Shown here: positions 26,137 through 45,051 of the stretch, one piece after another
How the letters are laid out: every line of letters begins with the position of its first letter
Position numbering within the stretch: the stretch's first letter is position 1
Origin: an uncultured Cytophagia bacterium
GTDB lineage: Bacteria; Zhuqueibacterota; Zhuqueibacteria; Residuimicrobiales; Residuimicrobiaceae
Length of the DNA: 64,000 nucleotides
Direction: 5' to 3'
NCBI GenBank assembly: GCA_964436305.1
Contig: CAYTCI010000003.1
Location: 22,350 to 86,349 of the forward strand
Program-made: the position numbers and the translations under genes
Notes under the pieces: generated by a model
Database searches by the model: none
The model's input: the letters and a program-made list of their open reading frames with translations, nothing else
Told to the model about the DNA's origin: nothing

Positions 26137-26155
26137 AGGTGAGAGGTCGTACTAC

Positions 26156-26620
26156 ATGGATAGAAGAAACAGAACTCCCCGCGAAGAGCCAAGTCCCAAA
26201 GTGATTGAACTGGTGCGACAGGTCGAAAATGACCTGATGGATGCACTCGCTCCGGTAAGTCTGACCCAACTCGACGCCAGCGAACGACGCCAGGTGCATC
26301 GCCATTTCGATCGCAGTACGGAATATGCCACCAAGACCTACAAGATCAGCGAAAACGAATACGAGCTGCGGGTCTATCCGGTCGGGAATCTTCGCCGGCT
26401 TGCCGAACGCGGGGCTGAACAGGCGATCAAAACCGGGCAGAAGGTGCCCTTGCCGCCCATGAGCAGCTATGAGCGCTTCATCGTCCACGAGGTGCTCAAG
26501 CAGAACGATGCGGTGAAGAGCGTCAGCCATGGCGAGGGGGCAGAACGTCACATCGAGATCGAGCCGGAGCTCTACGGGCGCAGCCTGAAAAAGATGATCA
26601 AAAAGATCAAGCTGATCTGA
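26156..26620 (+). CDS. R3H-domain nucleic-acid-binding protein (Jag-like C-terminal module)
   Basis: 154 aa. LPPMSSYERFIVHEVLK...SHGEGAERHIEI matches the R3H motif. Confidence 0.65.
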   Translation: MDRRNRTPREEPSPKVIELVRQVENDLMDALAPVSLTQLDASERRQVHRHFDRSTEYATKTYKISENEYELRVYPVGNLRRLAERGAEQAIKTGQKVPLPPMSSYERFIVHEVLKQNDAVKSVSHGEGAERHIEIEPELYGRSLKKMIKKIKLI

Positions 26621-26629
26621 AGCCGGGCA

Positions 26630-28267
26630 TCACGCCCGGGACAAGAAGAGGGGATTGGTGAAGCAGCGGTGGAGGATGCCATCGCGCCGGCTGCTCACCT
26701 CGAGGCGGAGATAGCCGCGCGCGGGAAGCGCCGGGGCGGCCTCCTGCCATTCGAACAGCCAGGAACCCGCGGTCGCAATCGGAAGCGACCGGCGGGTTTC
26801 TTTTTTTTCTGCTGTATCGCCGATGCATAAAGTCATGCTTTCGAGTGGGCCGAAGGTGGCGGTCGATTCCGCCCGGACGGACCAGGCGAGCGGCGGCATG
26901 GTGCAGGTATCGCCGAGCGTGAGGACCGCACCTTCGCGGGTGGTGAGTTCGAGCCAGGCAGCGGGGCCGCTGGTGACCAGGCAGCGGCCATCCTTCAGGG
27001 CCTGCAGCAAGGCTGCCGGCGTCAGCCGCCCGGCTGGACGCACGATTCCGGTACGGACCTGGCCGAAAAGATGTTCCTCCTTCTCCTTTAGGGCGAGATG
27101 GGGAAAGGCGATCTGACGCCACCGTCCCCAATCGCCGTGGGCGTCATTGCCGCCGATCAGGACCGGGCGCCGGCCGGAGAGCAGCAGGCGCCGCCAGACG
27201 GCCAGGCCCCGTTCGAGGCTGACGTCTTGGAGGCTGTTCCACATCTGCACGCCATCGAGGCGGGGATGCGCGTAATCCGCGGCGCGCCAGTGATCGCGAC
27301 CGAGCAGGAGGCGCTGCAGCCGCGGCGGGCGCGACTCGGCGTGGCCGGCGAAAGCGAGGCTGGTATCCTGCAGCCGCTCCAGCACCTCGGCGATCCGCCA
27401 CTGCGGGCGGCAGCGCAGCCAGTGCTCCGCCGAGTCACCCCAGCCGGCGAAGAATTCGGGTTCGTTGAGCAGCAGAAAATGGATGTTTCGACCGCGGCTG
27501 TTGCCGGCGGAGAGTTCCTCCCCCGCAAGGATGACCGGCTGCCGGCCTGCCTCGTTCCATCCCCGGGTAAACTCCAGCAGCCAGCGCCACTTGCCCAGCG
27601 CCGCATCCCTCTGCAGGTAGTCATCCCACAGATCGTCGAGATCGTAGGAATGGTCGGTCACCGCGAAAAAGTCGAGCCCCATGGCCGTCGCAGCGGCCGC
27701 CGCTGCTTCGGGCGGGGCGCCGAATTCGACCTGGTCAGCGGTGAGGTGGCTGTGGTAGTGGAGGTCGCCAAAGCACCAGCGGCCGGTGCCGGGCAGCTCC
27801 GCGGCATCATGCCAGAGCTGCAAGGGGGCATGACGGAGCGTGGGATAGTTGTCGACGCGAACCTGGCGCAATCGCCCCGCCTGCCGGCAAAGGAGCATCG
27901 GCGTGACCTGCAGGGCCCCATGGACCGGCGGGAGCGGCAGCGGAAAGGTGCGCCACCAGAGGGATTGGCCGACCCTTTCGCCGCCCAGGGGGATCGACTC
28001 GCTGCGGAGGATATCCTTCCCGCGGGTCATGACGATCCGGATTTCGAGCAGTTCGACGGGATAGCGGTCGGCATCCTTGATCAGCAGCAGCAAGGGCAGC
28101 TCGCGGCCGGGGGCGAGACGATGCGGGAGATCGAAAAGGATTTCGGCGCGCCGGCGGAAATAGCGGCTGGGCAGCCGGCCGATCCGGTAATGGGTCTCGA
28201 CGTAAAGCAGAAAGCCGGTCAGCAGGGTGCCGGCCAGGGTGTGGGGAAGGCTGGCTGGCAGGATCAC
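26630..28267 (-). CDS. Membrane-anchored PHP-domain metallophosphoesterase (CehA/McbA-like); last gene of the operon
   Basis: GTG start overlapping the upstream stop (GTGA at 28264-28267). N-terminal hydrophobic helix. PHP signature FGDLHYHSHLTADQVEFG...GLDFFAVTDHS and a later GGNDAHGD. Confidence 0.7.
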   Translation of the reverse strand: MILPASLPHTLAGTLLTGFLLYVETHYRIGRLPSRYFRRRAEILFDLPHRLAPGRELPLLLLIKDADRYPVELLEIRIVMTRGKDILRSESIPLGGERVGQSLWWRTFPLPLPPVHGALQVTPMLLCRQAGRLRQVRVDNYPTLRHAPLQLWHDAAELPGTGRWCFGDLHYHSHLTADQVEFGAPPEAAAAAATAMGLDFFAVTDHSYDLDDLWDDYLQRDAALGKWRWLLEFTRGWNEAGRQPVILAGEELSAGNSRGRNIHFLLLNEPEFFAGWGDSAEHWLRCRPQWRIAEVLERLQDTSLAFAGHAESRPPRLQRLLLGRDHWRAADYAHPRLDGVQMWNSLQDVSLERGLAVWRRLLLSGRRPVLIGGNDAHGDWGRWRQIAFPHLALKEKEEHLFGQVRTGIVRPAGRLTPAALLQALKDGRCLVTSGPAAWLELTTREGAVLTLGDTCTMPPLAWSVRAESTATFGPLESMTLCIGDTAEKKETRRSLPIATAGSWLFEWQEAAPALPARGYLRLEVSSRRDGILHRCFTNPLFLSRA

Positions 28268-29316
28268 GGCGCCTCCCGGGCGAACGTGCCGGCTCCCTGG
28301 AGTTCAGCCAGGATTTCAGCGGCGGGGCGCAAGTCGGTCCGCCGTGCGGCGTGCGGCAGAGCGGGGCGCAGATATTTATCGAAACTGTATTTGGCCTTGG
28401 CGGTCAGGCTTTGCAGAAAGAAGCGGTCGAAGCGGTAGGTGAAGGAGGGGTCGAAATAGCAGTTCAGGGTGCATCCTTCACATACGGGCCGGCGTCCCTG
28501 CAGGGCGCGCTGTTGGCTGACCTCTGCTCCGCGCCAGACCTGCTCAAGCCCCGTCTCCAGCGGAATTCGTATGGCTTCCCGATGATAACACGGAAGGATC
28601 AGCTCGTTTTGCGGCGAGATCACCACAACGCCGTCGACCACACGGCAACGCGAGGCAGCCGTGCGGTTGCCGCCCTGGCGGCGCAACCGGTGCAGAGCGC
28701 GGTTAAGGTAAACGAAGGGTTGATTCGCGAAGGATTCGATCAACGCGAGATCCGCGGGCATCAGCTCGTGGTGCTGCCGGTGCGAAAAGACCGGATTGAC
28801 GATGAGGATCAGCCGCAGGCGCTGGCAGAATTCCACCAGGCGGGGAAGATGGGACAGGGTCTCGGCGCGCGCGGTGAAGAGGATGTCCGGTTTTTCGCCA
28901 AAGTGACGGGCCCGGTCGATGCTGGTCATCACCGCCTCGAAGCAAGCAACCCCGCGCAGCCGGTCGTGATCGCCGGCCGAGGCGGCGTCCAGTGAGAAAT
29001 GAAGAAAATCGACCTGCCCGGCGAGTTCGGCGGCGCGTTCCGGGTAGAGCAGGGTATTGGTGGTCAGGGTGGTGCGCAGTCCGGCGGTGCGGGCCAGCCG
29101 GAGCATCTGCGGCAGATCGGGGTGCAGCAAGGGCTCGCCGCCGGTGAAATCGACGAAGCGCAGCCCGAGGCGTGCCGCGGCGGCGAGATTGCGCGCCACA
29201 TCACTCCGCTGCGCGGGCGATCCTGCGGGCTGGCGCCAGATGTCGCAGATGGTGCAGCGGCTGTTGCAGCGCTCCGTGATATAATAATGCAGCAGCAGCG
29301 GAGGCAGCCAGGACAT
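28264..29316 (-). CDS. Radical SAM enzyme with C-terminal auxiliary Cys cluster (rSAM-3)
   Basis: Start reset from 29751 to ATG 29316 (GGAGG RBS). CNSRCTIC (CX3CX2C) at residues 17-24, GGEPLL motif, C-terminal CRVVDG...ILPC and CEGCTLNCY. Confidence 0.85.
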   Translation of the reverse strand: MSWLPPLLLHYYITERCNSRCTICDIWRQPAGSPAQRSDVARNLAAAARLGLRFVDFTGGEPLLHPDLPQMLRLARTAGLRTTLTTNTLLYPERAAELAGQVDFLHFSLDAASAGDHDRLRGVACFEAVMTSIDRARHFGEKPDILFTARAETLSHLPRLVEFCQRLRLILIVNPVFSHRQHHELMPADLALIESFANQPFVYLNRALHRLRRQGGNRTAASRCRVVDGVVVISPQNELILPCYHREAIRIPLETGLEQVWRGAEVSQQRALQGRRPVCEGCTLNCYFDPSFTYRFDRFFLQSLTAKAKYSFDKYLRPALPHAARRTDLRPAAEILAELQGAGTFAREAP

Positions 29317-29330
29317 GGTTCCTCCCGGGG

Positions 29331-30467
29331 TCAGGTCTGCATGGCCCGGCCGGGGTGCGCCGGGTAGTTCTGATCTTTCCAGCGGATGCGCCGGTCGAAG
29401 AGCAGCAGCGGCGGCAGGATCAGACTGTAGGCGAAATAAAAGAGTTCGAATGCGGGAAAATGGCGCAGCAGCGCACTCTGGCCGGTCTGGCGAGTCATCT
29501 TGCGGCACAGAACCCAGTCGCAGGCCCAGAGGATCATGAGCGCCAGCAGGCCGGCCGGCTTTCCGCACACCAGCACCGCCAGGGTGGCGAGGTGACAGCC
29601 ATAGCTGATCGCCATCAACAGCTTGCCGAAGGGTCGCACCTGGCGGATGCCAAGCGCCCAGCGGCGGCGCTGGTAATAGAAGGCGGGCAGTGTGGTCACC
29701 GGCAGACTGGTGACTGCCGCACCCTGTGCGGTGGTGATGCGCACCTGCCACGGACTGGAACGCGAGATCGCATCGAGGAGGGCGAAATCCTCGATGAGAC
29801 TGGGGCCAAGGGCCGGATAGCCGCCGACCGCGAGATAGGCACTGCGGCGGAAGGCCATGTTATTCCCCATCCAGCTGAGTGGCTTGCCGAGGCGGATCGC
29901 GGCGGCTGCGATGCCGAGGAGGTAGAGTCCATCCAGGGCCTGGACGGCTGCGAATATGGGGCGGCGGCCGATCCGGGGATCCAGCAGGGTCAGGCCGCCG
30001 ACCAGACCAGCCTCAGGCGTAAAGGCGGCGAGCAGCTGACGAATCCAGCCTGGCGGGACCTGGCAATCTGCATCGGTGACGAAGAGAACCTCGCCGCGGC
30101 TCTCACAGATGCCGGCATAGACAGCGCCGGCCTTGCCCGGCAGTGTTTTTTCACCGCGGGCCAGATAGAGTGCTCGTACCTGCGGATGGGCCGTACAGAA
30201 GGCCTGCAGCAGCCGGTCTGAGCCGTCGCTCGAATCGTCGTCGATGAAAAAGATCTCGAGTTTGTCGGCCGGATAGTCAAGGGCGACGAGCGAGTCAAGG
30301 CAGGCGGCCAGGTGCGGCGCTTCATTGCGGATGGCGATGATCACGCTCACCAGTGGCTCCCAGGGCGGCTGCTCCGCATCCCCGGCGAAGAGGCCCTCCA
30401 GCTGGCGGCTCAAGACGACCACCATCGCGGCATAGAGGCCGCAGAGGATGAGCAGCAGGACCGACAA
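29331..30467 (-). CDS. Polytopic family-2 glycosyltransferase, paralog E
   Basis: N-terminal TM helix, VSVIIAIRNE, FIDDDSSDGS, FVTDADC, IEDFALL, QRRRW, C-terminal TM bundle ending RIRWKD. Start is uncertain: TTG 30467 (GGAAGGA RBS, 1 nt after the upstream stop) is preferred over ATG 30566, which would overlap the upstream gene by 98 nt. Confidence 0.8.
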   Translation of the reverse strand: MSVLLLILCGLYAAMVVVLSRQLEGLFAGDAEQPPWEPLVSVIIAIRNEAPHLAACLDSLVALDYPADKLEIFFIDDDSSDGSDRLLQAFCTAHPQVRALYLARGEKTLPGKAGAVYAGICESRGEVLFVTDADCQVPPGWIRQLLAAFTPEAGLVGGLTLLDPRIGRRPIFAAVQALDGLYLLGIAAAAIRLGKPLSWMGNNMAFRRSAYLAVGGYPALGPSLIEDFALLDAISRSSPWQVRITTAQGAAVTSLPVTTLPAFYYQRRRWALGIRQVRPFGKLLMAISYGCHLATLAVLVCGKPAGLLALMILWACDWVLCRKMTRQTGQSALLRHFPAFELFYFAYSLILPPLLLFDRRIRWKDQNYPAHPGRAMQT

Positions 30468-30468
30468 A

Positions 30469-31227
30469 TCAGTTTCCTTCCTGATGGCTCTGGAGGCGCA
30501 TGACGACCCGCTGGCCCGCTGGCCCGAACTGCAACAGCAGCGGGAGATTAGCCGGGGGCGGTCCAAGGCAGACGGTCAGCATCCCCTCCGGCCGGGCGAT
30601 GCGGTTGGTCAGCAGGTCGGTCTTCCAGGCTCGCGCCGCTGTGCTGCCGCTGCGGCTGAAACGCAGCACCACCTGCCGCACGCTGACCTTGCCGTCGGGG
30701 CCCTGGAGTTCACCGCCCTCAAGCACCCGGCCGCTGGCGATCCATGCCTGACTTTCGATATCGAGTGCAAAAGCGACCGAATCACCGACGGCGGGAGAGC
30801 GCTGCCGCAGCTGGAAGAGCATGGTGAAGAGGTCCATGGCATCGGCGAGGAAGGGCCAGACGCCCAGGCTGCCGCCCTGCGCGAGCCGCGTCGTCCGGTC
30901 GTAATGGATCTCGAGGGTCTGTTCGAGATTGCTCTGATCGATCCGTTTGCGTACCGTCAGGGGCAAGCCGGTGTGCGGATCGATCTCGGTCTGGTAGAGA
31001 TTGTGGATGGAGAAGAGCAGGCTGGTGAGTCTTTTGGTATCGATGCGGGCCTCGATCCGCTGCGGATCGCCGGGTACGAAGCGGATGACCGCCTCGGCCG
31101 CGCCGATTCCCTTGAAGGAGAGGGAAAAACCGAGGGTTTCGTTCCGGTCGGGCGGCAGCGCCGATTGGGAATGCGCACAGAGGGGCAGCAGACAGAGCGC
31201 CATGCAGATGCACCGCAGCCGGTTCAT
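30469..31227 (-). CDS. Secreted protein, DUF3108-like (family assignment tentative)
   Basis: 252 aa. Signal peptide MNRLRCICMALCLLPLCAHS. Beta-rich composition. ATGA overlap with the upstream radical SAM gene (31224-31227). Confidence 0.55.
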   Translation of the reverse strand: MNRLRCICMALCLLPLCAHSQSALPPDRNETLGFSLSFKGIGAAEAVIRFVPGDPQRIEARIDTKRLTSLLFSIHNLYQTEIDPHTGLPLTVRKRIDQSNLEQTLEIHYDRTTRLAQGGSLGVWPFLADAMDLFTMLFQLRQRSPAVGDSVAFALDIESQAWIASGRVLEGGELQGPDGKVSVRQVVLRFSRSGSTAARAWKTDLLTNRIARPEGMLTVCLGPPPANLPLLLQFGPAGQRVVMRLQSHQEGN

Positions 31228-32282
31228 GACCGCCGCCGCTGCATGCGCAAAATTTTGCGGGCGTTATCCAGCGCCTCGCCGAGCGAGCGCGGATGGACCA
31301 GCAGATAGCGCTGGGTGTAGCAGGTGGTCCAGCAGCCGCGGCATGCCCGGTAGGCCGCCAGCCGTTCACGATAGGCCGGACTCGAAAAGATCTCCCGCAT
31401 AGAGGATTGGCGGAGGTTGCCGACCGGACCGCCCCAGCAGAGGTGGAGATCCCCGTTCTCCATGATGGTAGTCCGGCTGCTGAGAAAACGCGAGGCGACG
31501 AAGGGACACGGTGTGGTTTCGCCCTGGCGGACAAAGGATTCCACTCCGCGCACCCAGGCATTGAGATTGAGGATGTCGGGATTGCGGTCGAGGAAGGCCG
31601 CCAGCCGCGTCAGGCGCTCGCCGGGCTGCACCGCGAGATCATCGTCATCGCGCGTGGTTTCGGTCAGGTGGTGGTAGAGGCCGATGGTTGCTTTCCAGCC
31701 GATGCGTTTGGCCGTGGCGATGAGTTCGGGCACCTGATCGAGATTGAGATCGCTGAGGACGATGTTGCAATAGAGCAGGGAGCGTGAGCCGCCGCGCATG
31801 GCCGAAATCATCTCCATGTGCCGCAATACGGTGGCGCTGAAATCCCTGGCGCCGCGCAGTCGATCCCCGATTTCACCGAAGCCATCGAGTGAGGTCTGGA
31901 TATTAATGTTGTGGTCGAGGCAGAAGCGGCCGATCTCACGGATCCGCTCGTTGGTATTGTAGAGTCCGGTGACCAGGGTGGTCGCCACCGGGAAGGTCTT
32001 TTTCGCCTCGAGGAGGATTTCCGGCAGATCATGGACCAGCGTGGCTTCGCCTCCGGAAATAAAGCCGATATAGGCTCCGTACTGCTGCAGTTCGCGGGCG
32101 ATGCGGCGGAAACTGGCGAGATCCATGCTGGCCGGTTCGGTCGTGCGTTCGTAAACCTGGCACTGGCGGCAGCGCTGGGTGCAAAGGCGGGTGAGGCGCA
32201 CCTCGGTACTCGAGTTGAGGGGGCGCCGGTCCCAGGCGTGCGAGAGGATGGCGGGTCCTTTTTTGACGAGATGTGGGATCAT
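31224..32282 (-). CDS. Radical SAM enzyme with C-terminal auxiliary Cys cluster (rSAM-2)
   Basis: Start reset from 32444 to ATG 32282 (ATGA overlap with the GT2-D stop). CTQRCRQC motif, SGGEATL, C-terminal CPFV...GDLHLC and CRGCWTTCY, paralogous to rSAM-3. Confidence 0.85.
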   Translation of the reverse strand: MIPHLVKKGPAILSHAWDRRPLNSSTEVRLTRLCTQRCRQCQVYERTTEPASMDLASFRRIARELQQYGAYIGFISGGEATLVHDLPEILLEAKKTFPVATTLVTGLYNTNERIREIGRFCLDHNINIQTSLDGFGEIGDRLRGARDFSATVLRHMEMISAMRGGSRSLLYCNIVLSDLNLDQVPELIATAKRIGWKATIGLYHHLTETTRDDDDLAVQPGERLTRLAAFLDRNPDILNLNAWVRGVESFVRQGETTPCPFVASRFLSSRTTIMENGDLHLCWGGPVGNLRQSSMREIFSSPAYRERLAAYRACRGCWTTCYTQRYLLVHPRSLGEALDNARKILRMQRRRS

Positions 32283-33433
32283 AGGGCGGCTGCGTGTTTG
32301 CGGTCTTTCCATTTGAAATTGCCGAAGGTGCCCATCAAGCCGACGAAGGTGATGTAGGGGATCTGAGCGAGAAACCAGAGCGGGAACCAGCGCAACAAAT
32401 CCGTGCGATGGTAGCGGCGGGCGCAGGTCCAGCTGATCACCCATTCTCCCGCCAGTTTGCCGGCGAGAGCGAGGGCGAAGAGGCCGAGGTGGCGGTGCAG
32501 CACGAGGGCGAACGGCAGGCCCAGGCAGAGGGCTGCGGTAAAGAGATAAACCATCACCAGATAGGCGAAGAAGGGGCGGTTGAGAAAAAGCTGGAAAGAG
32601 CCATTGGAGGCCCAGCGTTTGCGCTGGTTGATCAATTCGCCGAGGGTTGGCTGGGGAGCCGAGCTGGCGAAGGCCGCCGGTTCGGCGGCGAAGACGATGC
32701 GGCCGCCGGTGTGGGTACGCATGAGCTGCAGCAGCAGCACGTCGTCGCCGGAGACGCGGTGGGCGACCCGGCTGTAGCCGCCGACCGCCAGAAAAGCCTG
32801 GCGGAGAAAAGCGAGGTTCTGCCCGGAAGCCGAGAGCGGCAGTCCGAGGTTGCAGCTGCCCTCAGCGACCCCCATCAGCGGGATAAAGTCCATAGCCTGC
32901 AGGCGCTCGATGGTGTTCTGCGGCTCACCACGGCGGCCGTACTGCGAGAAGCCGATGACGAAGCAGACGCCCGGAAGAAAGTAACGGGCCATGGTTTCGG
33001 CCCAGTGTTTTCCGAGGCGGCAATCGGCATCGGTGGCGAGGATGATCTCACCCCGTGCCCGGTCGATGGCCTGCTGCAGGGCATATTTTTTGGGGCTCCA
33101 GCCGGCGGGTGTCTCGGTGATGGAGAGCAGCTGGATGAAAGAATAATGTTCCATGCGGCTGCGCACGATCTCCGCCGTGCGGTCGCTGGAGCCGTCGTCG
33201 GCGATGATGATTTCGTAGCGTTCGGCCGGGTATTCCTGGCTGGCGAGGTCATCGAGCAGGGCGCCGATGCCGCACTCTTCATTGCGGGCGGCGACGACGA
33301 CCGTGACGGCCGGCAGATCCGCCCGGCCGGGCACGGCGGGGCGGCGGAGGCCGATCAAAAAGAGCAGAATGGTGAGCAGATAGAGGGCTGCCAGCACGAG
33401 GGTGATGCAGGCGAAAAGGGTCATGAAGGACAT
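32279..33433 (-). CDS. Polytopic family-2 glycosyltransferase, paralog D
   Basis: N-terminal TM helix, VTVVVAARNEE, IADDGSSD, LATDADC, VSGDDVLLL, QRKRW, C-terminal TM bundle ending NFKWKD. Confidence 0.85.
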   Translation of the reverse strand: MSFMTLFACITLVLAALYLLTILLFLIGLRRPAVPGRADLPAVTVVVAARNEECGIGALLDDLASQEYPAERYEIIIADDGSSDRTAEIVRSRMEHYSFIQLLSITETPAGWSPKKYALQQAIDRARGEIILATDADCRLGKHWAETMARYFLPGVCFVIGFSQYGRRGEPQNTIERLQAMDFIPLMGVAEGSCNLGLPLSASGQNLAFLRQAFLAVGGYSRVAHRVSGDDVLLLQLMRTHTGGRIVFAAEPAAFASSAPQPTLGELINQRKRWASNGSFQLFLNRPFFAYLVMVYLFTAALCLGLPFALVLHRHLGLFALALAGKLAGEWVISWTCARRYHRTDLLRWFPLWFLAQIPYITFVGLMGTFGNFKWKDRKHAAAL

Positions 33434-33437
33434 GGGG

Positions 33438-34580
33438 TCAGGCTCCCGCCGGCGCTGCGGATGCGGCCGTCTCTTTCCAGTGGATCCGGCTCAACGGCCC
33501 GAGGGCGCCGAAGAGGACGACATAGCCGGCGTGCAGAATTTCTGCCAGGGGGAAGATCCAGAGAAAGTGCAGCCGGCGCATCGGTTTTGCAAAGTGAACC
33601 AGCAGCAACAGCTCGGCAGCACTCTTGCCGGCCCACGCCAGCCATGGGCGGGGATCGACCGGGGATTGGCAGAGACTCTGGATGGCCCCGGCGAGCAGCA
33701 GCAGGTTGAAAAGCCAGGCGAGGGCGAGCACCGAGGTCATTTTAATCCCATAGTGGAAGCCCTTGGAGGCATGGCGCAAGCGCTGGCGGAAAAAGGCGCG
33801 GCCGCTGGTGAGCAACCGGGTTGGCACGATCGCCTCCGGGGTGAGGGCGTAGTGTACCTGCCAGCGTGTCCGCTCAAGCACGAGCTTGAGGAAGAGGTCG
33901 TCGTCGCCGGAGATGAAGCCGGCGATCGGTGCGAAACCATCGACCTCCGTCCAGACGGTTTTACGGTAGCCCAGATTGCGGCCGCTGCAGGTCGCCGGCC
34001 GCCGCCAGCCGCTGGTGGCGGCCGCCAGGGCGGCCAGCGAGAGGGACTCGAGGGCGAGAAAGCGCTCCCCCAGGCTGCGTGGCGGCGGGATTTCATACGG
34101 CGAGTAGCCGATCACCATACCGACCTCCGGGGTGAAGCAGGCCTGCAGGGCGGAGATCCAGGTAGGGAGCGGCAGGCAATCGGCGTCCGTGAAGAGGAGA
34201 ATCTCACCCCGTGCCGCAGCGATGCCCTGGGCGAGGGCGTGCTTTTTCGGCGAGATTACCTGCTCGCGTCCCTGGCTGTGGATCAGGCGCAGCGGCGAGC
34301 CGGGATGGCTGCACTGCCAGGCGAGAAACTGTTCGACGGTCGTATCGTTCGAGGCATCATCGATGATCACGATCTCGTACCGGTCACGCGGATACTCCTG
34401 GCGGTCGAGGGCCTCGAGCAGGGGTGTGATATGCGCCGCCTCATTGCGTGCAGCGATCAGCACAGAGATGAAGGGCTGTTCTGCGGAGGTGGGCGGCGAT
34501 TTTAGCCGCCGCAGGCCCTGGACGATGAAGAGCAGTGCGACGATGTAGAGGATGGTGAGGGCGAGCAGCAAGGGAATCAT
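33438..34580 (-). CDS. Polytopic family-2 glycosyltransferase, paralog C
   Basis: N-terminal TM helix, ISVLIAARNE, IIDDASND, LFTDADC, ISGDDDLFL. The QxxRW position reads RQRLRH. C-terminus ends RIHWKE. Confidence 0.85.
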   Translation of the reverse strand: MIPLLLALTILYIVALLFIVQGLRRLKSPPTSAEQPFISVLIAARNEAAHITPLLEALDRQEYPRDRYEIVIIDDASNDTTVEQFLAWQCSHPGSPLRLIHSQGREQVISPKKHALAQGIAAARGEILLFTDADCLPLPTWISALQACFTPEVGMVIGYSPYEIPPPRSLGERFLALESLSLAALAAATSGWRRPATCSGRNLGYRKTVWTEVDGFAPIAGFISGDDDLFLKLVLERTRWQVHYALTPEAIVPTRLLTSGRAFFRQRLRHASKGFHYGIKMTSVLALAWLFNLLLLAGAIQSLCQSPVDPRPWLAWAGKSAAELLLLVHFAKPMRRLHFLWIFPLAEILHAGYVVLFGALGPLSRIHWKETAASAAPAGA

Positions 34581-34589
34581 CAGACGGGA

Positions 34590-36173
34590 CTAGTAGTTAT
34601 AGGAGACTTCGAAACGGGCCAGGTGATCCCCGGCGGTGCGGCCCGCGATCCGGCCCGCATTGCGGCTGGAGACATGGGTGTAGGCGATCGAGACAAAGAG
34701 ATCGCGCCGAAGCTGGTCCTGGATGCGAAAGCCGGTCAGGTATTTTTTTTCCACCAGGCCGTTGAGGAAGTGCTTGGTCGTCCCCTTGCCGGGGCGGGCC
34801 TGGGTATCGGCCACGCCCTCGCCCTTGCGGATGCGCTCAAAAGTGGCCTCCAGGCGGAGATCCCGGCCAAGCTGATAGCCCGCCAGCAAAAAGGCCGAGT
34901 CCGAGTTGGGGCCCAGCCAGTGGCCGATGACCTTGTCATAGTGGGTGTAGATGTTGATCGAATCGTGGTGGGCGTAGACGAAGGGTTCAACCCGGCTGTA
35001 TTCCAGCCGCAGGTCCAGATTTCTGGCCCCGAGTGGATCGCTCCAGAGCGCGCCGGTCAGAAAAGCGAATTTGTTGCCATAGTAGCGGGTCAGGCTTTCG
35101 GTGGAGGTCATGTCGTCAATAAAGTACTCCGCATAGAGGCGGGCACCGGGCAGCAGGGTGCAGCTGAGATTCAAAAAGAGGGTATTGTTGTCACGGTCGC
35201 CGAGATGATGTTCGGCGATATGGTAGAGCATGAGCGGATTGAGATAATCCATTTCGATATCGCGGCTGCCATAGACGACGGTTTCGCCGCCACCGAGCTG
35301 GAGCCCGGGCCGGAGGAGAAAGTCGATCCGGTGCGCGGCCATATATTTGGCGCCCAGCGGGCTGCGCAGGAAGAGATGGGCGCTGCTGAACGCGAAACGG
35401 CGGAAGCGGCTCGAGAGGCGGATCATATCGGCGGGCGGCATGTTGCGGGTGAGGGCCAGTCCGCTGTGAAATCCCGGCCCCCAGTCGATCTCGTCGCGGC
35501 CCACCTGAATGCGCAGCCAGGGCTTTTCCCAGATAAAGTAGGCGATGGCCCGGTCGCGGAAAACATTGGGGCCGGAAACCGTCACGGGTGAGCCCTTCGA
35601 GACGTCATAGTTTTCATCCTGGTCGCTGACGCTTTTTTCGCCGCGGGTGACGGCATTGCGGGCGTCGGCATAAAAGCCGAGCACGCCGCCGAGGTTGCCG
35701 CGCAGGATCGCCCCGAGTGTGCCCTCGCTCAGGAGATCCGCGGGCTGATAGCTGCCACCGCGGTTGGAGATGACGCTGACGCTGCTATAGAGGTCGATGA
35801 AGGCCTGGCTGGTGCCCTCCTGCCAGCGGGCGGAATGGAGCTCGCCTGGCTTGGCGGTCACGGCCGGGGTCATCGCCCCGAGTTCATCCGCGAAATCGCC
35901 CCTGAGCTGTTCCAGCAGCCGCCGGTCCGTCTGCGAGAGCAGGCCGGGTTTTTCTGCGGTACGCGCATCAATCGCCGTAATGAGTTTCGCCACCTGGGTG
36001 CGATTGAGCGGGCGGTCAAGGAGCGCCAGGGATTTGAAGAGCCCCTTGGCCTCCATGCGCTCGAGAAATCCATAGCCCCAATAGTCCAGCGGGACATGGA
36101 CACTCTGCGCGAGCACCGGCAGGGCGCAGAGGAGCAAAAGCAGGCTGAGGCGGCTGGATTTCATCGGAACCAT
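34590..36173 (-). CDS. Capsule-assembly Wzi-like outer-membrane protein
   Basis: Signal peptide ...LLLLCALPVLAQS. N-terminal PLDYWGYGFLERMEAKGLFKSLALLDRPLNRTQVAKLI matches the Wzi-family helical N-domain pattern. Beta-strand-rich remainder ends in the aromatic FEVSYNY. Confidence 0.65.
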   Translation of the reverse strand: MVPMKSSRLSLLLLLCALPVLAQSVHVPLDYWGYGFLERMEAKGLFKSLALLDRPLNRTQVAKLITAIDARTAEKPGLLSQTDRRLLEQLRGDFADELGAMTPAVTAKPGELHSARWQEGTSQAFIDLYSSVSVISNRGGSYQPADLLSEGTLGAILRGNLGGVLGFYADARNAVTRGEKSVSDQDENYDVSKGSPVTVSGPNVFRDRAIAYFIWEKPWLRIQVGRDEIDWGPGFHSGLALTRNMPPADMIRLSSRFRRFAFSSAHLFLRSPLGAKYMAAHRIDFLLRPGLQLGGGETVVYGSRDIEMDYLNPLMLYHIAEHHLGDRDNNTLFLNLSCTLLPGARLYAEYFIDDMTSTESLTRYYGNKFAFLTGALWSDPLGARNLDLRLEYSRVEPFVYAHHDSINIYTHYDKVIGHWLGPNSDSAFLLAGYQLGRDLRLEATFERIRKGEGVADTQARPGKGTTKHFLNGLVEKKYLTGFRIQDQLRRDLFVSIAYTHVSSRNAGRIAGRTAGDHLARFEVSYNY

Positions 36174-36231
36174 CTCTCAATGAGTGCAAGGCGGGTGGTG
36201 TCTGGCGGTGGAGCGCCGGAATTTGGAAAGG

Positions 36232-36259
36232 AATATATCAATAATGGCGTTCAATTCAA
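36232..36259 (-). promoter_or_regulatory. Candidate internal sigma70-like promoter in the only real intergenic gap of the operon
   Basis: On the minus strand: TTGAAT (36259-36254), 16-nt spacer, TATATT (36237-36232), about 60 nt upstream of the Wzi-like start. The promoter consensus of this lineage is unknown. Confidence 0.3.
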
Positions 36260-36269
36260 ATGATTTTCA

Positions 36270-37415
36270 TCATTGCGGCGCCGGGAGGCCGGCAAGACGG
36301 CCCTGGCGGTAGTGGCGCCCCTTCCAGGTAAAGCGGCCGAGGAGACCGAGAAGCCCGATCACCGGAATGTAGAGCAGGTGCAGGAGCGAGGCGAGGAAAA
36401 AGGCGCGCCAGTCCCAGCTGCGCCGGACCATGCGTACGCCGAAGCGCATCAGCAGGGCGTCGCCGGACCACTTGAGCACCAGCGCGGCGAGCGGGATCCA
36501 CAGCGGGAAGGAGAGAAGGAGCGCCAGGGGCGGGCCGAGCAGGAGAGCCAGATAGCTGAGAAAGAGGCCCGCTTCGACCGCCTTGATCCAGGCGGGATAG
36601 CAGGCGGACTTGGAGGCCCAGCGGATGCGCTGGCGGAAAAAATCACGCCATGAGGTACACGGGAAGGTGGTCACGCCAGCCTCGGGATCAGCGTTGAAGT
36701 GGATGGCACCGTGACGGGCCAGTTTCTGGATCAGCAGGTCATCGTCACCCGAGCCCATTTGCGCGAATCCGCCGTAGCCGCCGTTCTCGAGAAACAGCCG
36801 GCGGCGGAAGGCCAGATTGGCGCCATTGGCGATGAGAGGCCGGCGCCAGCCGATGGCCGCGGCGCCGACCAGTTGGAGGGCCAGGGCGTCAAGGAATTCG
36901 ATCCGCGCGGGCAGGCTTTTCTCTTCGGGAATCAGAACCCAGGCGGCGACAGCAGCGGTATCGCGTGCAAAGGCAGCACTCATTTTTTCCACCCAGTTCG
37001 GCGGTGTGGAGCAGTCCGCATCGAGGGTGAGGATGATCTCGCCGCCCGCGGCGGTGATGCCGGCAGCCAGGGCGGCCTTTTTCGGTGCATAGCCGGCCTC
37101 GGTCGCCGGTGCGCCCAGGATGCGGATGGACGGGAAGCGGGCGGCAATCCGCTCGACCGCGGCTCGCGTTCCATCCTCCGAATGATCATCGACCACCACC
37201 GTCTCGAGTAACTCACGCGGATAGCTCTGCTTCAGCAGGGTCCCGAGACAATAAGGGATGTTCTGTTCTTCATTGCGCGCGGCGATCACCACCGAGGCTT
37301 TGGGCAGGGTCTCACCGGCGCGCGGTCGATGCAGCCGTCGCAAACCGCTGAGGCTCCAGGCGATGAACAGGAGATAGAGGAGCGAAAGGAGGAGGTAGAA
37401 CAAGGGCGCGATCAT
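36270..37415 (-). CDS. Polytopic family-2 glycosyltransferase, paralog B
   Basis: Start reset from 38015 to ATG 37415 (ATGA overlap with the upstream stop). N-terminal TM helix, ASVVIAARNEE, VVDDHSEDGT, LTLDADC, GSGDDDLLI, QRIRW, C-terminus ends RFTWKG. Confidence 0.85.
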   Translation of the reverse strand: MIAPLFYLLLSLLYLLFIAWSLSGLRRLHRPRAGETLPKASVVIAARNEEQNIPYCLGTLLKQSYPRELLETVVVDDHSEDGTRAAVERIAARFPSIRILGAPATEAGYAPKKAALAAGITAAGGEIILTLDADCSTPPNWVEKMSAAFARDTAAVAAWVLIPEEKSLPARIEFLDALALQLVGAAAIGWRRPLIANGANLAFRRRLFLENGGYGGFAQMGSGDDDLLIQKLARHGAIHFNADPEAGVTTFPCTSWRDFFRQRIRWASKSACYPAWIKAVEAGLFLSYLALLLGPPLALLLSFPLWIPLAALVLKWSGDALLMRFGVRMVRRSWDWRAFFLASLLHLLYIPVIGLLGLLGRFTWKGRHYRQGRLAGLPAPQ

Positions 37416-38389
37416 GCCGGACCTCGCATGCGGATGGAGTGAGCCCTGCGGGCGGTGCTCCGGCGAAGAAGCAGGACCAGTCCGGCCAGGGCGGGCATCA
37501 AAACGTTGATAAAAAAGAGCAACAGGGAGCCATCGAAGGCCGGCGCCGGAGGAATCCCCAGTTCGCCAAGAAAATAGATGGCGGCGCTTTCGCGAATGCC
37601 CAGATCGCCGATCGAGATCGGCAGCATGGTCTTGACCCAAAGGGTGGCCATCAGGGCCTGCAGTCCGCGCATCAGCGGCAAGAAGCAAAAGGCACGGATC
37701 AGGAGATAGAACTGGAGCAGATAGGTCAGGACCTGTCCGAGGGCCAGCAGGCTGATCCGCAGGGCCAACAACGGCGGTACATGCTCGAGGCTGGAGATGG
37801 TCCGGGCGAGTTTGTTGCGATGCTCCCAGTGTTTGCGGAATTTTTTCAGGATCCCGGCCAGAAAGGGGGGATGGAGCAGCAGCAGGAAGAGCACGGCAAA
37901 AAAGGCCAGGGCGACGATCAGGAGCGGCAACCAGACCAGCAGTTCGGTCTCTTTTTTCAGGATGGGTATCATGCCGATCAGCCCGAAAAAGAGCAGGGTC
38001 AGGAAGGCGTAGCATTTATCCAGCAGGGTGAGACCGAGCAGCCGCGGCCAGTCGTTGCCGGCGATGAGGAAAGCCCGGCCGAATTCGCCGACCCGCCCGG
38101 GGGTGATGAAGCCGAGGGTGATCCCGGAGAGGAGCGAGGAGAAGATTTGCCGCGCCGGCACCTGGGGCTGAACCTGGCGGACCAGCAGGGCCCAGCGGCG
38201 GTATTGGAAGTACAGGTTGAGGCCGAGGAGGAGCACGGCCGGGAGGATCCAGAGAATCCGGGCCTGGAGGAGTGCCGCTTGAAGCTCAGCGGCGTGGATA
38301 CGCCGGACCAGCATCGCCACAACGATGACGGCAATCGCCACCTTGGCGAGGATCAGGACGCGTTTATGCCGGGTAAAGGGAGAGGCCAT
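37412..38389 (-). CDS. UPF0104 / lysyl-PG-synthase-TM-region family flippase-like membrane protein
   Basis: 325 aa with about 8 TM helices. The pattern ...YRRWALLV...LSGITLGFITPGRVGEFGRAF... is typical of TIGR00374-type flippase-like proteins. 26-nt overlap with the upstream gene. Confidence 0.7.
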   Translation of the reverse strand: MASPFTRHKRVLILAKVAIAVIVVAMLVRRIHAAELQAALLQARILWILPAVLLLGLNLYFQYRRWALLVRQVQPQVPARQIFSSLLSGITLGFITPGRVGEFGRAFLIAGNDWPRLLGLTLLDKCYAFLTLLFFGLIGMIPILKKETELLVWLPLLIVALAFFAVLFLLLLHPPFLAGILKKFRKHWEHRNKLARTISSLEHVPPLLALRISLLALGQVLTYLLQFYLLIRAFCFLPLMRGLQALMATLWVKTMLPISIGDLGIRESAAIYFLGELGIPPAPAFDGSLLLFFINVLMPALAGLVLLLRRSTARRAHSIRMRGPA

Positions 38390-39377
38390 CGCTGCAATTC
38401 AGACAAATGTGAGGTGCCTTGCCGGAGCACTGTTGTCGGCGAAAGGCGCGGGAGGCCGGACCGCGCAGGGCTGCCGCCAGCGGTTCCGAACCATTGCCGA
38501 GGAGATGCTCACCGTTCTTATCAAAACAGCAAGGAACGATATTTCCATCCCAATGGACGACACAGGAGTAGGCCAGGCGCGAGCAGGGGAGACGACGGCC
38601 GCTCCTGGTCAGCCAGCGATCCTCCTGCAGAGGATAGCGCCGGAAGCGCGGATCGGCAGGCAGGAAATCTTCCGCCGGCATGCCGGCATGGAGGTAGAGC
38701 GACTTGAGGAGCAGATGGTCCGCGCCCCAGGCGCGGGCGGCTGCTGCCATCCCCGGCAGCTCGTATTCGTTTTGGCGGGTGATTACGAACTGGAGATAGA
38801 GACGCGGCGTCGACCGGCCCAGGGACCGGCGCGCCTGGCGCAGATGGCGCAGGCCGGCTTGCAGCTTTGCCAGCGAGCCCCCGCGGCGAATGGCGGCATA
38901 GCGCTCCGGCGTCACCGCATCGGCCGAAATAATCAGGGCATCCAGGCCGCTGGCGACGACCTCGCGAGCCAGGGCCGGATCGGCCAGTCGCTGACCGTTG
39001 GTGCTGCTGACGACGCAGATCCGGTGCGATTTGGCCAGCCGCACCATCTCGGGAAAATCGGGATGGAGGAGGGGCTCACCCTGGTCGTAGAGCAGCAGAT
39101 AAAGCAGATGGTGCTGATTCACCTGCAGGATGTGACGGTAGAGGTCAAGATCCATCCATCCGCCGGGACGCGTCAGCGTGCCGGTACCGGTTTCGCAGTG
39201 CGGACAGCGCAGATCACAGAGATTGGTAGGCTCAATGCTGAGGACGTAGGGTGCTCCCCAAAAGTGCGGGCGTCCGTCGAGGCGGCCGGCGGCGGTCGCA
39301 GCCAGAGCCCCGGCGGCCTGCAGGGCCCGCTGCGGCGTCAGAGCCGGCAGCAGCCGCGACCAGGGGATCTCTTTCAT
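38364..39377 (-). CDS. Radical SAM / SPASM-domain enzyme (rSAM-1)
   Basis: Start reset from 39455 to ATG 39377 (ATGA overlap with the methyltransferase stop). CDLRCPHC motif, QGEPLL, C-terminal CVVHWDGNIVPCC (CX5GX4C) followed by CSGKAPHICLNC. Confidence 0.85.
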   Translation of the reverse strand: MKEIPWSRLLPALTPQRALQAAGALAATAAGRLDGRPHFWGAPYVLSIEPTNLCDLRCPHCETGTGTLTRPGGWMDLDLYRHILQVNQHHLLYLLLYDQGEPLLHPDFPEMVRLAKSHRICVVSSTNGQRLADPALAREVVASGLDALIISADAVTPERYAAIRRGGSLAKLQAGLRHLRQARRSLGRSTPRLYLQFVITRQNEYELPGMAAAARAWGADHLLLKSLYLHAGMPAEDFLPADPRFRRYPLQEDRWLTRSGRRLPCSRLAYSCVVHWDGNIVPCCFDKNGEHLLGNGSEPLAAALRGPASRAFRRQQCSGKAPHICLNCSDGLSLYPA

Positions 39378-40174
39378 GACCTCCCCTTCCTGGCGAGGAT
39401 AAAAAAGGTGGGCATCAGCCAGCGGTTGCCGAAGGAATTGCGGTTGTCGATCCACCGCCCGAGACGCCGGTCCCAGCCATGCGTCTGCAGGCGCTCCACC
39501 ATGCGCAGGTGCCAGGGACGGTTCCAGAGGGCGCGCGGCGAGCGCATCGCCGCCTCACTGGTTTCGCGGTTGATAAAGCACCAGGAGAAACCGGCATCGC
39601 GCAAGAGACGGTCGATCGAGGCGAGCGAAAGCAGTTGCGGGAAATCGGGCTTGTCCGCCGGCAGCCAGTGCAGCCATTCCGCGACGACACGCGCCACGTT
39701 CCGGCGCGAAAGCAGCGAGAGCAGCGGCAGGCCGTAATGAGGATCGCACAGGGCGTTGGCAGGCGAGCAGCGGTTCGGGGTGGCGACCAGCAGCAACCCG
39801 CCGGGCCTGAGTGCGCCGCCGATTTGCTGCAATACCCGGGCGGGATCGGCAAGATGTTCGAGCACATCCCACAGGACCGCGGCTTGCAGCGGCGTATCCA
39901 TCTGCCATCTGCCGAGATCGGCGCAGACATAGCGCACCGCGCTGCCGGCGATCCGGGCAGGGGGTGAGGCCAGCCGATCCACAGCGGTCACCAGCGCGCC
40001 GGCCTCCGCCAGCGCCCGGCTGGCGCCGCCTGCACCGCAGCCGGCATCGAGGACCGCCGCACCGGAGAGCGTCATCCAGCGCTGCAGCAGAGTGACGATC
40101 AGTTCTCCGCGCAGTCCGGCCCAGTCGTCATAATTGCTCCAGAGACGCAGATGGCCGGTCAGGGCTTGGGCCAC
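39374..40174 (-). CDS. Class I SAM-dependent methyltransferase
   Basis: GTG start. Motif I VLDAGCGAGGASRALAEAGALVTAVD, then LVATPN. 16-nt overlap with the upstream GT2-A. Confidence 0.8.
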   Translation of the reverse strand: MAQALTGHLRLWSNYDDWAGLRGELIVTLLQRWMTLSGAAVLDAGCGAGGASRALAEAGALVTAVDRLASPPARIAGSAVRYVCADLGRWQMDTPLQAAVLWDVLEHLADPARVLQQIGGALRPGGLLLVATPNRCSPANALCDPHYGLPLLSLLSRRNVARVVAEWLHWLPADKPDFPQLLSLASIDRLLRDAGFSWCFINRETSEAAMRSPRALWNRPWHLRMVERLQTHGWDRRLGRWIDNRNSFGNRWLMPTFFILARKGRS

Positions 40175-41253: not shown

Positions 41254-41395
41254 TCCTGGCAAATTATCCAAAAATGGGGAAACAAGCAAGGAATATTACC
41301 GGCAGGAGTGGGCAAATGCCCGTTGGGTGAGACAAAAGCGTTGTTTGCCGCCGATTATTTATGTATCTTTCTGCACATAGCCGACCCAAATCGCA

Positions 41396-45048: not shown

Positions 45049-45051
45049 GGT

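Follow-up and report, generated by a model that had tools for sequence, protein, structure and literature searches.

Operon organization

Three radical S-adenosylmethionine (radical SAM, rSAM) enzymes are encoded in a single operon on contig CAYTCI010000003.1 of an uncultured Cytophagia bacterium (Zhuqueibacterota in GTDB). We analyzed the surrounding 64,000 nucleotides, referred to below as the window, which have a G+C content of about 60%; positions are those of the window unless a locus from another genome is named. The operon comprises 13 genes on the minus strand, running from 41253 to 26630, and all three rSAM genes lie inside it. Its first part reads GT2-A, a SAM methyltransferase, rSAM-1, LPG_synthase_TM (an MprF-like flippase domain), GT2-E and a Wzi-like gene, and its second part GT2-G, GT2-H, rSAM-2, DUF3108, GT2-K, rSAM-3 and a CehA/McbA-type PHP metallohydrolase, GT2 denoting membrane glycosyltransferases. 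Adjacent genes share 4-26 nt or leave 1-14 nt between them, the sole exception being a 96-nt gap between GT2-E and the Wzi-like gene. An initial annotation of this DNA had placed the outer limits of the three rSAM genes correctly, at the end of rSAM-3 (28264) and the ATG of rSAM-1 (39377). It had also described their neighbors as all glycosyltransferases, which is incorrect: besides the five GT2s, the operon encodes the methyltransferase, the LPG_synthase_TM protein, the Wzi-like protein, the DUF3108 protein and the metallohydrolase. In the order of transcription the features are:

40159..41253, minus strand: GT2-A, membrane GT2/GT21-type glycosyltransferase, 364 aa, first operon gene (Pfam Glycos_transf_2, 76 bits, and Glyco_transf_21)
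39374..40174, minus strand: SAM-dependent methyltransferase, 266 aa (Pfam Methyltransf_23, 72 bits)
38364..39377, minus strand: rSAM-1, radical SAM protein with a predicted BtrN-type twitch/SPASM domain, 337 aa (Pfam Radical_SAM, 57 bits; SPASM, 39.1 bits)
37412..38389, minus strand: membrane protein with an MprF-like flippase domain (LPG_synthase_TM), 325 aa (Pfam PF03706, 110 bits)
36270..37415, minus strand: GT2-E, membrane GT2/GT21-type glycosyltransferase, 381 aa (Pfam; DAD, QRIRW and transmembrane pattern)
36174..36269, minus strand: 96-nt spacer, the one long gap between operon genes (sigma-70-like promoter match at 36259-36232)
34590..36173, minus strand: Wzi-like outer-membrane protein, 527 aa, with a hydrophobic, signal-peptide-like N-terminus (Pfam Caps_assemb_Wzi, 62 bits)
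33438..34580, minus strand: GT2-G, membrane GT2/GT21-type glycosyltransferase, 380 aa (NCBIfam and Pfam-type matches; motifs)
32279..33433, minus strand: GT2-H, membrane GT2/GT21-type glycosyltransferase, 384 aa, upstream partner of rSAM-2 (family matches, motifs)
31224..32282, minus strand: rSAM-2, radical SAM protein with a twitch-like C-terminus, 352 aa (Pfam Radical_SAM, 40.6 bits; SPASM, 27.3 bits)
30469..31227, minus strand: DUF3108 protein, 252 aa, with a signal-peptide-like N-terminus (Pfam DUF3108, 32 bits)
29331..30467, minus strand: GT2-K, membrane GT2 resembling HpnI and ceramide glucosyltransferase, 378 aa, upstream partner of rSAM-3 (NCBIfam HpnI, 92.3 bits)
28264..29316, minus strand: rSAM-3, radical SAM protein with a twitch-like C-terminus, 350 aa (Pfam Radical_SAM, 72.2 bits; no SPASM match)
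26630..28267, minus strand: CehA/McbA-family PHP-type metallohydrolase, 545 aa, last gene (NCBIfam NF038032, 95.8 bits, cutoff 80)

Translation of the rSAM genes starts at ATG codons at 39377 (rSAM-1), 32282 (rSAM-2) and 29316 (rSAM-3), giving the same lengths as identical database proteins, while GT2-K starts at a TTG codon following AGGAAGGAAA. The methyltransferase gene shares 16 nt with GT2-A and 4 nt with rSAM-1; at the other end of the operon, 14 nt separate GT2-K from rSAM-3, the stop codon of which is overlapped by 4 nt by the start of the PHP gene. GT2-A has an N-terminal transmembrane segment, a DAD motif, QKRRH and C-terminal transmembrane segments, and all five GT2s share this architecture, with DAD near residue 130, (Q/R)xxR(W/H) near residue 265 and two or three C-terminal transmembrane segments. 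The three rSAM proteins and the methyltransferase have no transmembrane segments; the Wzi-like and DUF3108 proteins have signal-like N-termini. We looked for solved structural relatives of the PHP protein and found none, and an Rfam scan of the window returned no regulatory RNA.

Radical SAM domains and conserved cysteines

All motifs quoted in the initial annotation are present in the three minus-strand reading frames: the N-terminal CX3CX2C motifs CDLRCPHC, CTQRCRQC and CNSRCTIC, together with CVVHWDGNIVPCC, CSGKAPHICLNC, CRGCWTTCY and CEGCTLNCY. Each protein also passed the Pfam Radical_SAM model (PF04055, cutoff 29.5 bits) with E-values of 3e-10 to 7e-20, so that their naming as radical SAM enzymes stands. 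To judge which cysteines matter we used alignments of 50-121 homologs per rSAM family. The Cys residues of the SAM-cluster motif (C54/C58/C61 in rSAM-1, C34/C38/C41 in rSAM-2 and C17/C21/C24 in rSAM-3) are invariant or nearly so.

Beyond this triad only four or five C-terminal Cys are conserved in each family. In rSAM-1, numbered from the ATG (family alignment numbering is one higher), these auxiliary Cys are C265, C283, C284, C325 and C328, in the motif C-X12-G-X4-CC ... C-X2-C. The invariant C-terminal Cys are C259, C282, C314, C317 and C321 in rSAM-2, and C224, C243, C279, C282 and C286 in rSAM-3. The SPASM model PF13186 (cutoff 21.5 bits) matched rSAM-1 (39.1 bits) and rSAM-2 (27.3 bits). 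It did not match rSAM-3, despite the C-terminus of that protein being homologous to those of rSAM-1 and rSAM-2 by hhalign, and TIGR04085 was not among the best 25 NCBIfam matches of any of the three. The tail originally described as SPASM-like in rSAM-1 includes two Cys that are not conserved, namely the first Cys of CVVHW (present in 7/50 homologs) and the first Cys of CSGKAPHIC (2/50).

A full SPASM domain has 7-8 conserved Cys in the arrangement CX9-15GX4C ... CX2CX5CX3C ... C and carries two auxiliary clusters. We rejected this assignment, because four or five conserved Cys cannot hold two SPASM auxiliary clusters; the number fits the single-cluster twitch form. All four auxiliary Cys of BtrN align with C265, C283, C325 and C328 of rSAM-1 (domain E 7e-10), and in rSAM-3 and rSAM-2 these four columns line up too. 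As judged from sequence, all three proteins would therefore belong to the twitch subclass, with a truncated SPASM domain, a C...C pair in the beta-hairpin plus CX2C, and a single predicted auxiliary cluster. This agrees with the shortened SPASM/twitch site proposed for rSAM-2 and rSAM-3 in the initial annotation. At E<=0.01 Pfam reported only Radical_SAM, SPASM and Fer4_12 across the three proteins, and no B12-binding domain in any of them. AlphaFold2 models of rSAM-3 and rSAM-2 had mean predicted local distance difference test (pLDDT) values of 91.6 and 88.

The proposal that rSAM-2 and rSAM-3 are paralogs holds only as remote homology. BLASTP gave E 0.014 for the pair, which led us to reject a recent duplication, while their family profiles aligned with 97% probability (E 2e-11, 22% identity over 268 columns) and with all five C-terminal Cys in register. 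The profiles of rSAM-1 and rSAM-3 are closer still (99.6% probability, E 8e-24). The three rSAMs thus form one ancient clade rather than a set of recent duplicates.

Relation to known families and structures

None of the three proteins reached the cutoff of any NCBIfam model among its best 25 matches. The highest scores of rSAM-1, 103 bits with W_rSAM_matur (cutoff 380) and 102 bits with rSAM_Geo_metal, covered the N-terminal half only. The same was true of the PTO1314 family (TIGR03961), which was the best match of both rSAM-3 (80.6 bits) and rSAM-2 (45.1 bits); with a cutoff of 306 bits we rejected membership for both. The BlsE family (TIGR04466, cutoff 400) was likewise rejected at 56.7 bits for rSAM-3 and 27.9 bits for rSAM-1. 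Homologs in the databases are named just 'radical SAM protein' or are misnamed MoaA.

Other systems that combine radical SAM enzymes with related partners were also considered. Membership in the hopanoid hpnIJKL group was rejected on scores of 92.3 against 310 bits for HpnI (GT2-K) and 35.9 against 225 for HpnH (rSAM-3). Neither HpnJ nor HpnL appeared among the best 25 NCBIfam matches per protein, so that the likeness to HpnJ raised in the initial annotation finds no support there. Mycofactocin was set aside on scores of 59 against 265 for MftC and 61-86 against 280 for MftF, with no MftA/B/D/E-like genes in the operon, and arsenosugar synthesis on 23-34 against 300 for ArsS and 39-47 against 182 for TIGR04283. 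Scores for the heme d1/NirJ, PqqE and anSME families were far below the NCBIfam cutoffs.

Among solved structures the best match of the rSAM-1 family profile was BtrN (74 bits, E 9e-20), in keeping with the BtrN likeness first suggested, followed by BlsE and GDGT-MAS. GDGT-MAS was the top PDB match when rSAM-1 was used as a single sequence (E 1.4e-5; 57 bits by profile). BlsE led both searches with rSAM-3, the one of sequences (E 1.8e-14 with the protein alone, 2e-20 with its family profile) and the one of folds (Foldseek E 2e-13, TM-scores 0.67/0.71, 307 columns). AbmM and SpeY, which are sugar-acting twitch enzymes, also matched rSAM-3 by sequence, and the BtrN twitch region matched positions 192-285 of its profile weakly (E 9e-5). 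The fold of rSAM-2 is closest to SkfB and then to BlsE; of these two only SkfB matched by sequence, and PqqE is a further match of rSAM-2. Among 1.84 billion representatives, 20 clusters belonged to the rSAM-2 family at E<=1e-30, which makes it a small one.

Search for a precursor peptide

We searched all frames of 26.5-42.2 kb for open reading frames (ORFs) of 20-90 aa outside genes and compared them by tblastn with 86 related loci. The operon gaps hold few ORFs, of 22-42 aa, and we found no small ORF conserved at the peptide level in the operon. A reading of the locus as one for a ribosomally synthesized and post-translationally modified peptide (RiPP) was rejected: the sole tblastn matches (E 7e-4 at best, in the nearest relatives) fell on both strands of the 96-nt spacer, which points to conservation of the DNA rather than of a peptide. 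The initial annotation had held that the gaps are too small for a precursor and had proposed a re-scan for short ORFs; with spacings of -26 to +14 nt apart from the 96-nt gap, and unconserved ORFs of 22-42 aa, the scan bears this out. No PqqD-like RiPP recognition element was found in the neighboring genes with Pfam or NCBIfam, and the rSAM proteins have no fused domain of that kind at Pfam E<=0.01, hence no PqqD-like recognition domain.

The spacer itself resembles, at the DNA level, the same spacer in the nearest relatives (loci L006 and L007). It contains TTGAAT-16-TATATT with a TG extension, the sole sigma-70-like match in the region and a match to the consensus only, and it may serve as an internal promoter for the Wzi-GT2G-GT2H-rSAM2 part of the operon.

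Gene pairing in other genomes

The closest relatives of the three rSAMs come from metagenome-assembled genomes (MAGs) labeled 'bacterium' or candidate division KSB1. A profile scan with rSAM-3, taking one genome per species, found orthologs at 42-73% identity in KSB1, Latescibacterota, Zixibacteria, Calditrichota and Ignavibacteria, and in the same range in Chlorobiota, Bacteroidota/Rhodothermales, Fibrobacterota and Chitinivibrionia. A GT2 gene lies directly upstream of rSAM-3 in 48/77 species genomes from several phyla, and a PHP hydrolase gene directly downstream in 34/71. The scan for rSAM-2 was made in metagenomes, where 30 of the 33 loci have a GT2 directly upstream, usually as Wzi-GT2G-GT2H-rSAM2. 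In 13/15 loci the flippase-like gene comes directly after the rSAM-1 homolog, and a DUF3108 gene lies upstream of GT2-K/rSAM-3 in 36 loci. These pairings are kept across KSB1, Latescibacterota, Zixibacteria, Ignavibacteria and part of Fibrobacterota. Lone copies of rSAM-3 fall mainly on one branch of its tree, made up of Bacteroidota, Chlorobiota, Rhodothermales and some Fibrobacterota, with a few outside it, for example two Latescibacterota loci.

The operon is also modular. Collinear operons lack both rSAM-1 and rSAM-2 in L001, L012-L014 and L017, and rSAM-1 only in L025, which is the pattern expected of optional tailoring genes. Minimal modules occur as well, with GT2A-MT-rSAM1-flippase alone in L139 (MT, methyltransferase) and GT2-rSAM2-PilZ in L002. 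A NodB-type deacetylase is encoded inside the GT2/rSAM-3 cluster in 13 loci. We rejected the idea that the PHP hydrolase is a stand-in for this deacetylase, since both occur together in 3 of the 13 loci and are therefore not mutually exclusive.

In 17 loci a gene for a PilZ cyclic di-GMP (c-di-GMP) receptor directly follows rSAM-2:

L002 (11056-11718), L091, L093, L095, L097, L099, L101, L102, L105-L107, L110-L112, L118, L136 and L137

The protein is about 228 aa long and has RRxxxR and NxSxxG motifs, with Pfam scores of 24.4 and 22.7 bits (cutoff 22.5). PilZ receptors for c-di-GMP are typical of exopolysaccharide synthase systems, and the position of the gene suggests c-di-GMP control of the GT2G-GT2H-rSAM2 module. 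We found no PilZ copy in the window.

Further radical SAM genes turned up in these comparisons. A fourth related twitch rSAM family, which we call rSAMx (about 320 aa, C-terminal C...C...CxxxCGWYQYF), is encoded between GT2 and rSAM-3 in L046, L048, L050 (9031-9999), L060, L061, L068 and L075, from Zixibacteria, Ignavibacteria and Latescibacterota; one compact Ignavibacteria locus has the order Wzi-rSAM1-flippase-deacetylase-GT2-rSAMx-rSAM3. A radical SAM protein of about 510 aa, with its own CX3CX2C and a weak match to a B12-binding domain, is encoded directly downstream of rSAM-2 in six loci including L094. On a Nitrospinales MAG contig (L141, 616-12367) six radical SAM/SPASM genes are interleaved with GT2s and a GFO_IDH_MocA oxidoreductase gene, making this another glycan-type cluster unusually rich in rSAM enzymes.

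A proposed role in tailoring envelope sugars

We somewhat favor the view that the region is a modular operon for a cell-envelope glycan or glycolipid, in which the three rSAMs are sugar-tailoring twitch enzymes of the BtrN/BlsE type and not peptide maturases. Its observed basis is gene content, motifs, homology, conserved pairing and modular presence or absence. The tight operon, the genuine rSAM domains, the four or five Cys in register and the rank of BtrN and BlsE as best matches of rSAM-1 and rSAM-3 make this, as far as sequence can tell, the most likely account. For the carbohydrate substrate, the type of reaction, a lipid or polymer product and the export route we draw on context and distant homology.

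In the scheme that we propose, assembly would take place on the cytoplasmic face, where the five inner-membrane GT2/GT21-type transferases would either extend a membrane acceptor by a short glycan or make a synthase-type polymer. Being soluble, the rSAMs are placed in the cytoplasm; in each of them the [4Fe-4S] cluster bound by CX3CX2C would cleave SAM to give a 5'-deoxyadenosyl radical. This radical would abstract hydrogen from a carbon of a sugar, either the nucleotide-sugar donor of the partner GT2 or the sugar just installed, and the single auxiliary cluster, held by the four Cys in the BtrN register, would complete the reaction. A BtrN-like oxidation of C-OH to C=O is the candidate reaction for rSAM-1, and a BlsE-like decarboxylation or rearrangement for rSAM-3 and rSAM-2; ring contractions as proposed for HpnJ and Cds (PMC13459092) are possible too. 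None of the 13 operon genes encodes a nucleotide-sugar epimerase, dehydratase, dehydrogenase or aminotransferase of the conventional kind, a role that could thus fall to the rSAMs through the radical sugar chemistry proposed here. The methyltransferase and the PHP-type hydrolase might tailor the product further, the protein with the MprF-like flippase domain might carry it across the inner membrane, and the exported DUF3108 and Wzi-like proteins might handle it in the periplasm or outer membrane.

The likeness of GT2-K to HpnI and ceramide glucosyltransferase, together with the MprF-type flippase domain, favors a lipid-anchored product. The (Q/R)xxRW motifs and the Wzi-like protein, along with the PilZ gene that follows rSAM-2 elsewhere, are just as compatible with an exopolysaccharide.

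Several observations weigh against a role in sugar tailoring. No curated family cutoff was reached and the relatives are only 15-22% identical, so that function is extrapolated across that distance. The solved structure closest to rSAM-2 is that of a peptide maturase, SkfB, with PqqE matching as well, and the top NCBIfam matches of rSAM-1 are 'maturase' families, if over the N-terminal half only. Fold similarity cannot tell peptide from sugar substrates within this clade. The lone rSAM-3 orthologs of Bacteroidota, Chlorobiota and some Fibrobacterota have no GT2 neighbor and lie among genes unrelated to glycans, and rSAM-1-like genes of Bacteroidales (33-37% identity) adjoin a D-Tyr-tRNA deacylase gene rather than glycan genes. 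The carbohydrate or cyclitol chemistry that the initial annotation thought more plausible is thus partly upheld: the lack of a precursor, the linkage to GT2 and flippase genes, BtrN for rSAM-1 and BlsE for rSAM-3 speak for it, while SkfB as the nearest relative of rSAM-2 and the lone rSAM-3 orthologs do not.

A bolder version of the sugar-tailoring view, which we consider rather doubtful, is that the three families and rSAMx form an unrecognized twitch clade dedicated to primary envelope glycan or glycolipid biosynthesis across the Fibrobacterota-Chlorobiota-Bacteroidota (FCB) superphylum, with undescribed radical sugar chemistry. Candidates for such chemistry are radical oxidation, decarboxylation and ring contraction of nucleoside diphosphate- or lipid-linked sugars, possibly giving cyclitol- or pentose-type residues, and the widely conserved rSAM-3 would then mark a lineage-wide envelope component.

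It is unlikely, in our judgment, that the rSAMs are instead protein or peptide maturases with a substrate encoded elsewhere in the genome or in the operon itself, as would be the case if rSAM-3 acted on the coupled PHP metallohydrolase. The enzyme anSME matures sulfatases, and rSAM/SPASM families annotated as 'metalloenzyme maturase' are thought to work likewise. The scores of rSAM-1 with W_rSAM_matur and rSAM_Geo_metal (103 and 102 bits) could be read in this way, but they reflect the generic N-terminal rSAM core and lie far under the cutoffs. SkfB is the best solved relative of rSAM-2, PqqE matches it too, and SPASM peptide maturases rank high in the fold searches with rSAM-3 and rSAM-2; against this, the proteins have room for one auxiliary cluster only, and the operon has neither a conserved small ORF nor, by Pfam, a PqqD-like recognition domain. 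Coupling of rSAM-3 to the PHP gene, with its 4-nt overlap and its retention in 34/71 genomes, would suit an enzyme and its protein substrate; however, rSAM-3 often occurs without a PHP gene, and the constant partner of rSAM-2 is a GT2 (30/33), not a candidate protein substrate.

We think it quite improbable that the rSAMs modify the lipid part of a glycolipid through radical C-C coupling, cyclization or chain changes, as Tes/GDGT-MAS, Mss, GrsA/B and HpnH do with lipids. The match of rSAM-1 to GDGT-MAS (E 1.4e-5 as the top single-sequence PDB match, 57 bits by profile) and the weak NCBIfam matches to Tes and HpnH would fit such a role, but the matches to lipid rSAMs are weak, are confined to the common N-terminal core and are outscored by BtrN and BlsE. 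The rSAMs are also only about 340-350 aa long, with no transmembrane segment or extra lipid-binding domain, compared with 526 aa for the GDGT-MAS chain. The setting points both ways: GT2-K looks like a transferase of lipid head groups, rSAM-1 has an MprF-like lipid flippase domain as its partner, and OlsF and Pho genes lie nearby, yet the operon has no fatty-acid or isoprenoid genes.

That at least rSAM-3 is an FCB housekeeping enzyme with no part in making this glycan, for example one of cell-wall or cofactor metabolism, and that its place in the operon reflects nothing but inherited synteny, we regard as very unlikely. Lone orthologs at 42-48% identity do occur in Chlorobiota, Bacteroidota, Rhodothermales and some Fibrobacterota beside varied neighbors (SpoU methylase/DUF2887, MtgA and MoxR, patatin-Omp85), and adjacent conserved genes in KSB1 and Caldithrix include Mpl ligase, Jag/EloR-like and RodZ genes. 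But the latter are on the opposite strand, a GT2 precedes rSAM-3 directly in 48/77 species genomes, the order GT2-rSAMx-rSAM3 recurs in Zixibacteria and Ignavibacteria, and rSAM-3 of the window stands 14 nt from GT2-K and shares 4 nt with the PHP gene.

On the reading that we favor, these are by all appearances enzymes of a known kind, twitch/SPASM radical SAM proteins of the BtrN/BlsE type, that fall in no defined family. Their setting is unusual, with up to three of them in one conserved, modular envelope-glycan operon of FCB-group phyla. Sugar-acting twitch radical SAM enzymes are known from antibiotic pathways (BtrN, BlsE, SpeY and AbmM). Here, three distinct uncharacterized twitch-type families occur in a conserved envelope glycan operon of largely uncultured FCB bacteria (KSB1, Latescibacterota, Zixibacteria, Ignavibacteria). 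Should these enzymes act on sugars, anaerobes would be using radical chemistry routinely to diversify their surface glycans or glycolipids. The fixed pairs offer testable sets of enzymes and partners (GT2/rSAM-2; GT2/rSAM-3/PHP hydrolase; methyltransferase/rSAM-1/flippase-like protein), with the natural operon variants lacking one or two rSAMs as ready-made controls. In the literature we found no description of this gene combination, nor of the function of DUF3108.

Genes around the operon

On one side the operon is flanked, on the opposite strand, by Mpl ligase, Jag/EloR-like and RodZ genes, and on the other by genes for a lytic transglycosylase, a MOP/Wzx flippase, phoR-phoB-phoU-pstBACS and OlsF. 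The flippase gene (42122-43594, minus strand) lies immediately upstream of the glycan operon and overlaps the phoR stop codon by 4 nt. The genes pstS-pstC-pstA-pstB-phoU-phoB-phoR (43591-50013, minus strand) adjoin OlsF, a bifunctional ornithine-lipid synthase (51415-53241, plus strand; 722 bits, cutoff 620). Genes for phosphorus-free lipids and the Pho regulon thus stand beside the glycan operon, in the same arrangement as in L006, and a link of the operon to phosphate limitation is possible. A terminator scan of 26000-43000 found 20 terminator-like hairpins, compared with 10.3 +/- 3.1 in shuffled sequences; all are within coding sequence and none is at an obvious operon end.

Farther out, the window contains five long ORFs (379-849 aa) without a Pfam or NCBIfam match at the thresholds used:

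8958-10643, minus strand: long ORF
10911-12050, plus strand: long ORF
12154-14235, plus strand: long ORF
14232-16781, plus strand: long ORF
53343-55679, plus strand: long ORF

A 950-aa protein that combines repeated CarboxypepD_reg domains with a FlgD_ig-like C-terminus (1015-3867, minus strand) is followed by a bacterial serpin (3858-5096, minus strand; 354 bits), and the gene for a GWxTD-domain protein (20461-21909, plus strand) adjoins an SMC gene.

Comparison with known systems

The GT2s share their D, DxD and (Q/R)xxRW motifs and flanking transmembrane helices with the synthases of c-di-GMP-controlled exopolysaccharide systems (BcsA/PilZ, Alg44, PgaCD) and of NodC/NodB and PgaC/PgaB. The PilZ protein that closes the GT2G-GT2H-rSAM2 module in 17 loci and the NodB-type deacetylase of 13 loci add to this likeness. 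The operon differs in having five separate GT2s instead of one synthase, and the window has no tetratricopeptide repeat/porin exporter and no PilZ. To our knowledge, no c-di-GMP-controlled synthase, NodC/NodB or PgaC/PgaB system has been described as including radical SAM genes.

With the SPASM maturases anSME, PqqE, MftC, SkfB, SuiB and CteB the rSAMs share the radical SAM core and a homologous C-terminal Fe-S domain. They differ in having 4-5 conserved Cys rather than 7-8, which leaves a second auxiliary cluster impossible, and in lacking an adjacent or conserved peptide gene and, in the three rSAMs, a recognition domain detectable by Pfam.

The hopanoid HpnI-HpnK-HpnJ(-HpnL) module has similar components: its membrane GT2 glycosylates a lipid, and with it go a deacetylase (present in 13 of our related loci), an rSAM and a PF03706 membrane protein. 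HpnI, which transfers glucosamine in hopanoid synthesis, is the best NCBIfam match of GT2-K and covers almost its full length, at 92.3 bits against a cutoff of 310, and residues 4-296 of the 378 of GT2-K align with a ceramide glucosyltransferase in the PDB. HpnJ is a B12-binding class B rSAM. The deacetylase of the related loci is of the NodB type, and the window has no squalene or hopene genes. Ring contractions have been proposed for HpnJ and for the archaeal calditol synthase Cds (review PMC13459092).

BlsE, the cytosylglucuronate decarboxylase of blasticidin S biosynthesis (PDB 7VOB; PMC3715490), is the best match of rSAM-3, and its substrate is a nucleobase-linked sugar rather than a peptide. 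It is 22% identical to rSAM-3, the sequence match covers the N-terminal half only, and rSAM-3 has five invariant C-terminal Cys.

BtrN, the 2-deoxy-scyllo-inosamine dehydrogenase of butirosin biosynthesis (PDB 4M7S/4M7T), is the founding twitch radical SAM enzyme. The profile match of rSAM-1 to it spans both the SAM-cluster core and the C-terminal domain, and both have a single auxiliary-cluster site and no partner peptide. Unlike native BtrN, rSAM-1 is about 85 residues longer and is encoded in an envelope glycan operon instead of an aminoglycoside cluster, and rSAM-2 and rSAM-3 have a fifth invariant Cys (CxGCxxxCY). On the 74-bit homology, we consider a BtrN-type dehydrogenase, oxidizing a secondary alcohol of an aminocyclitol or sugar by two electrons, to be the candidate function of rSAM-1.

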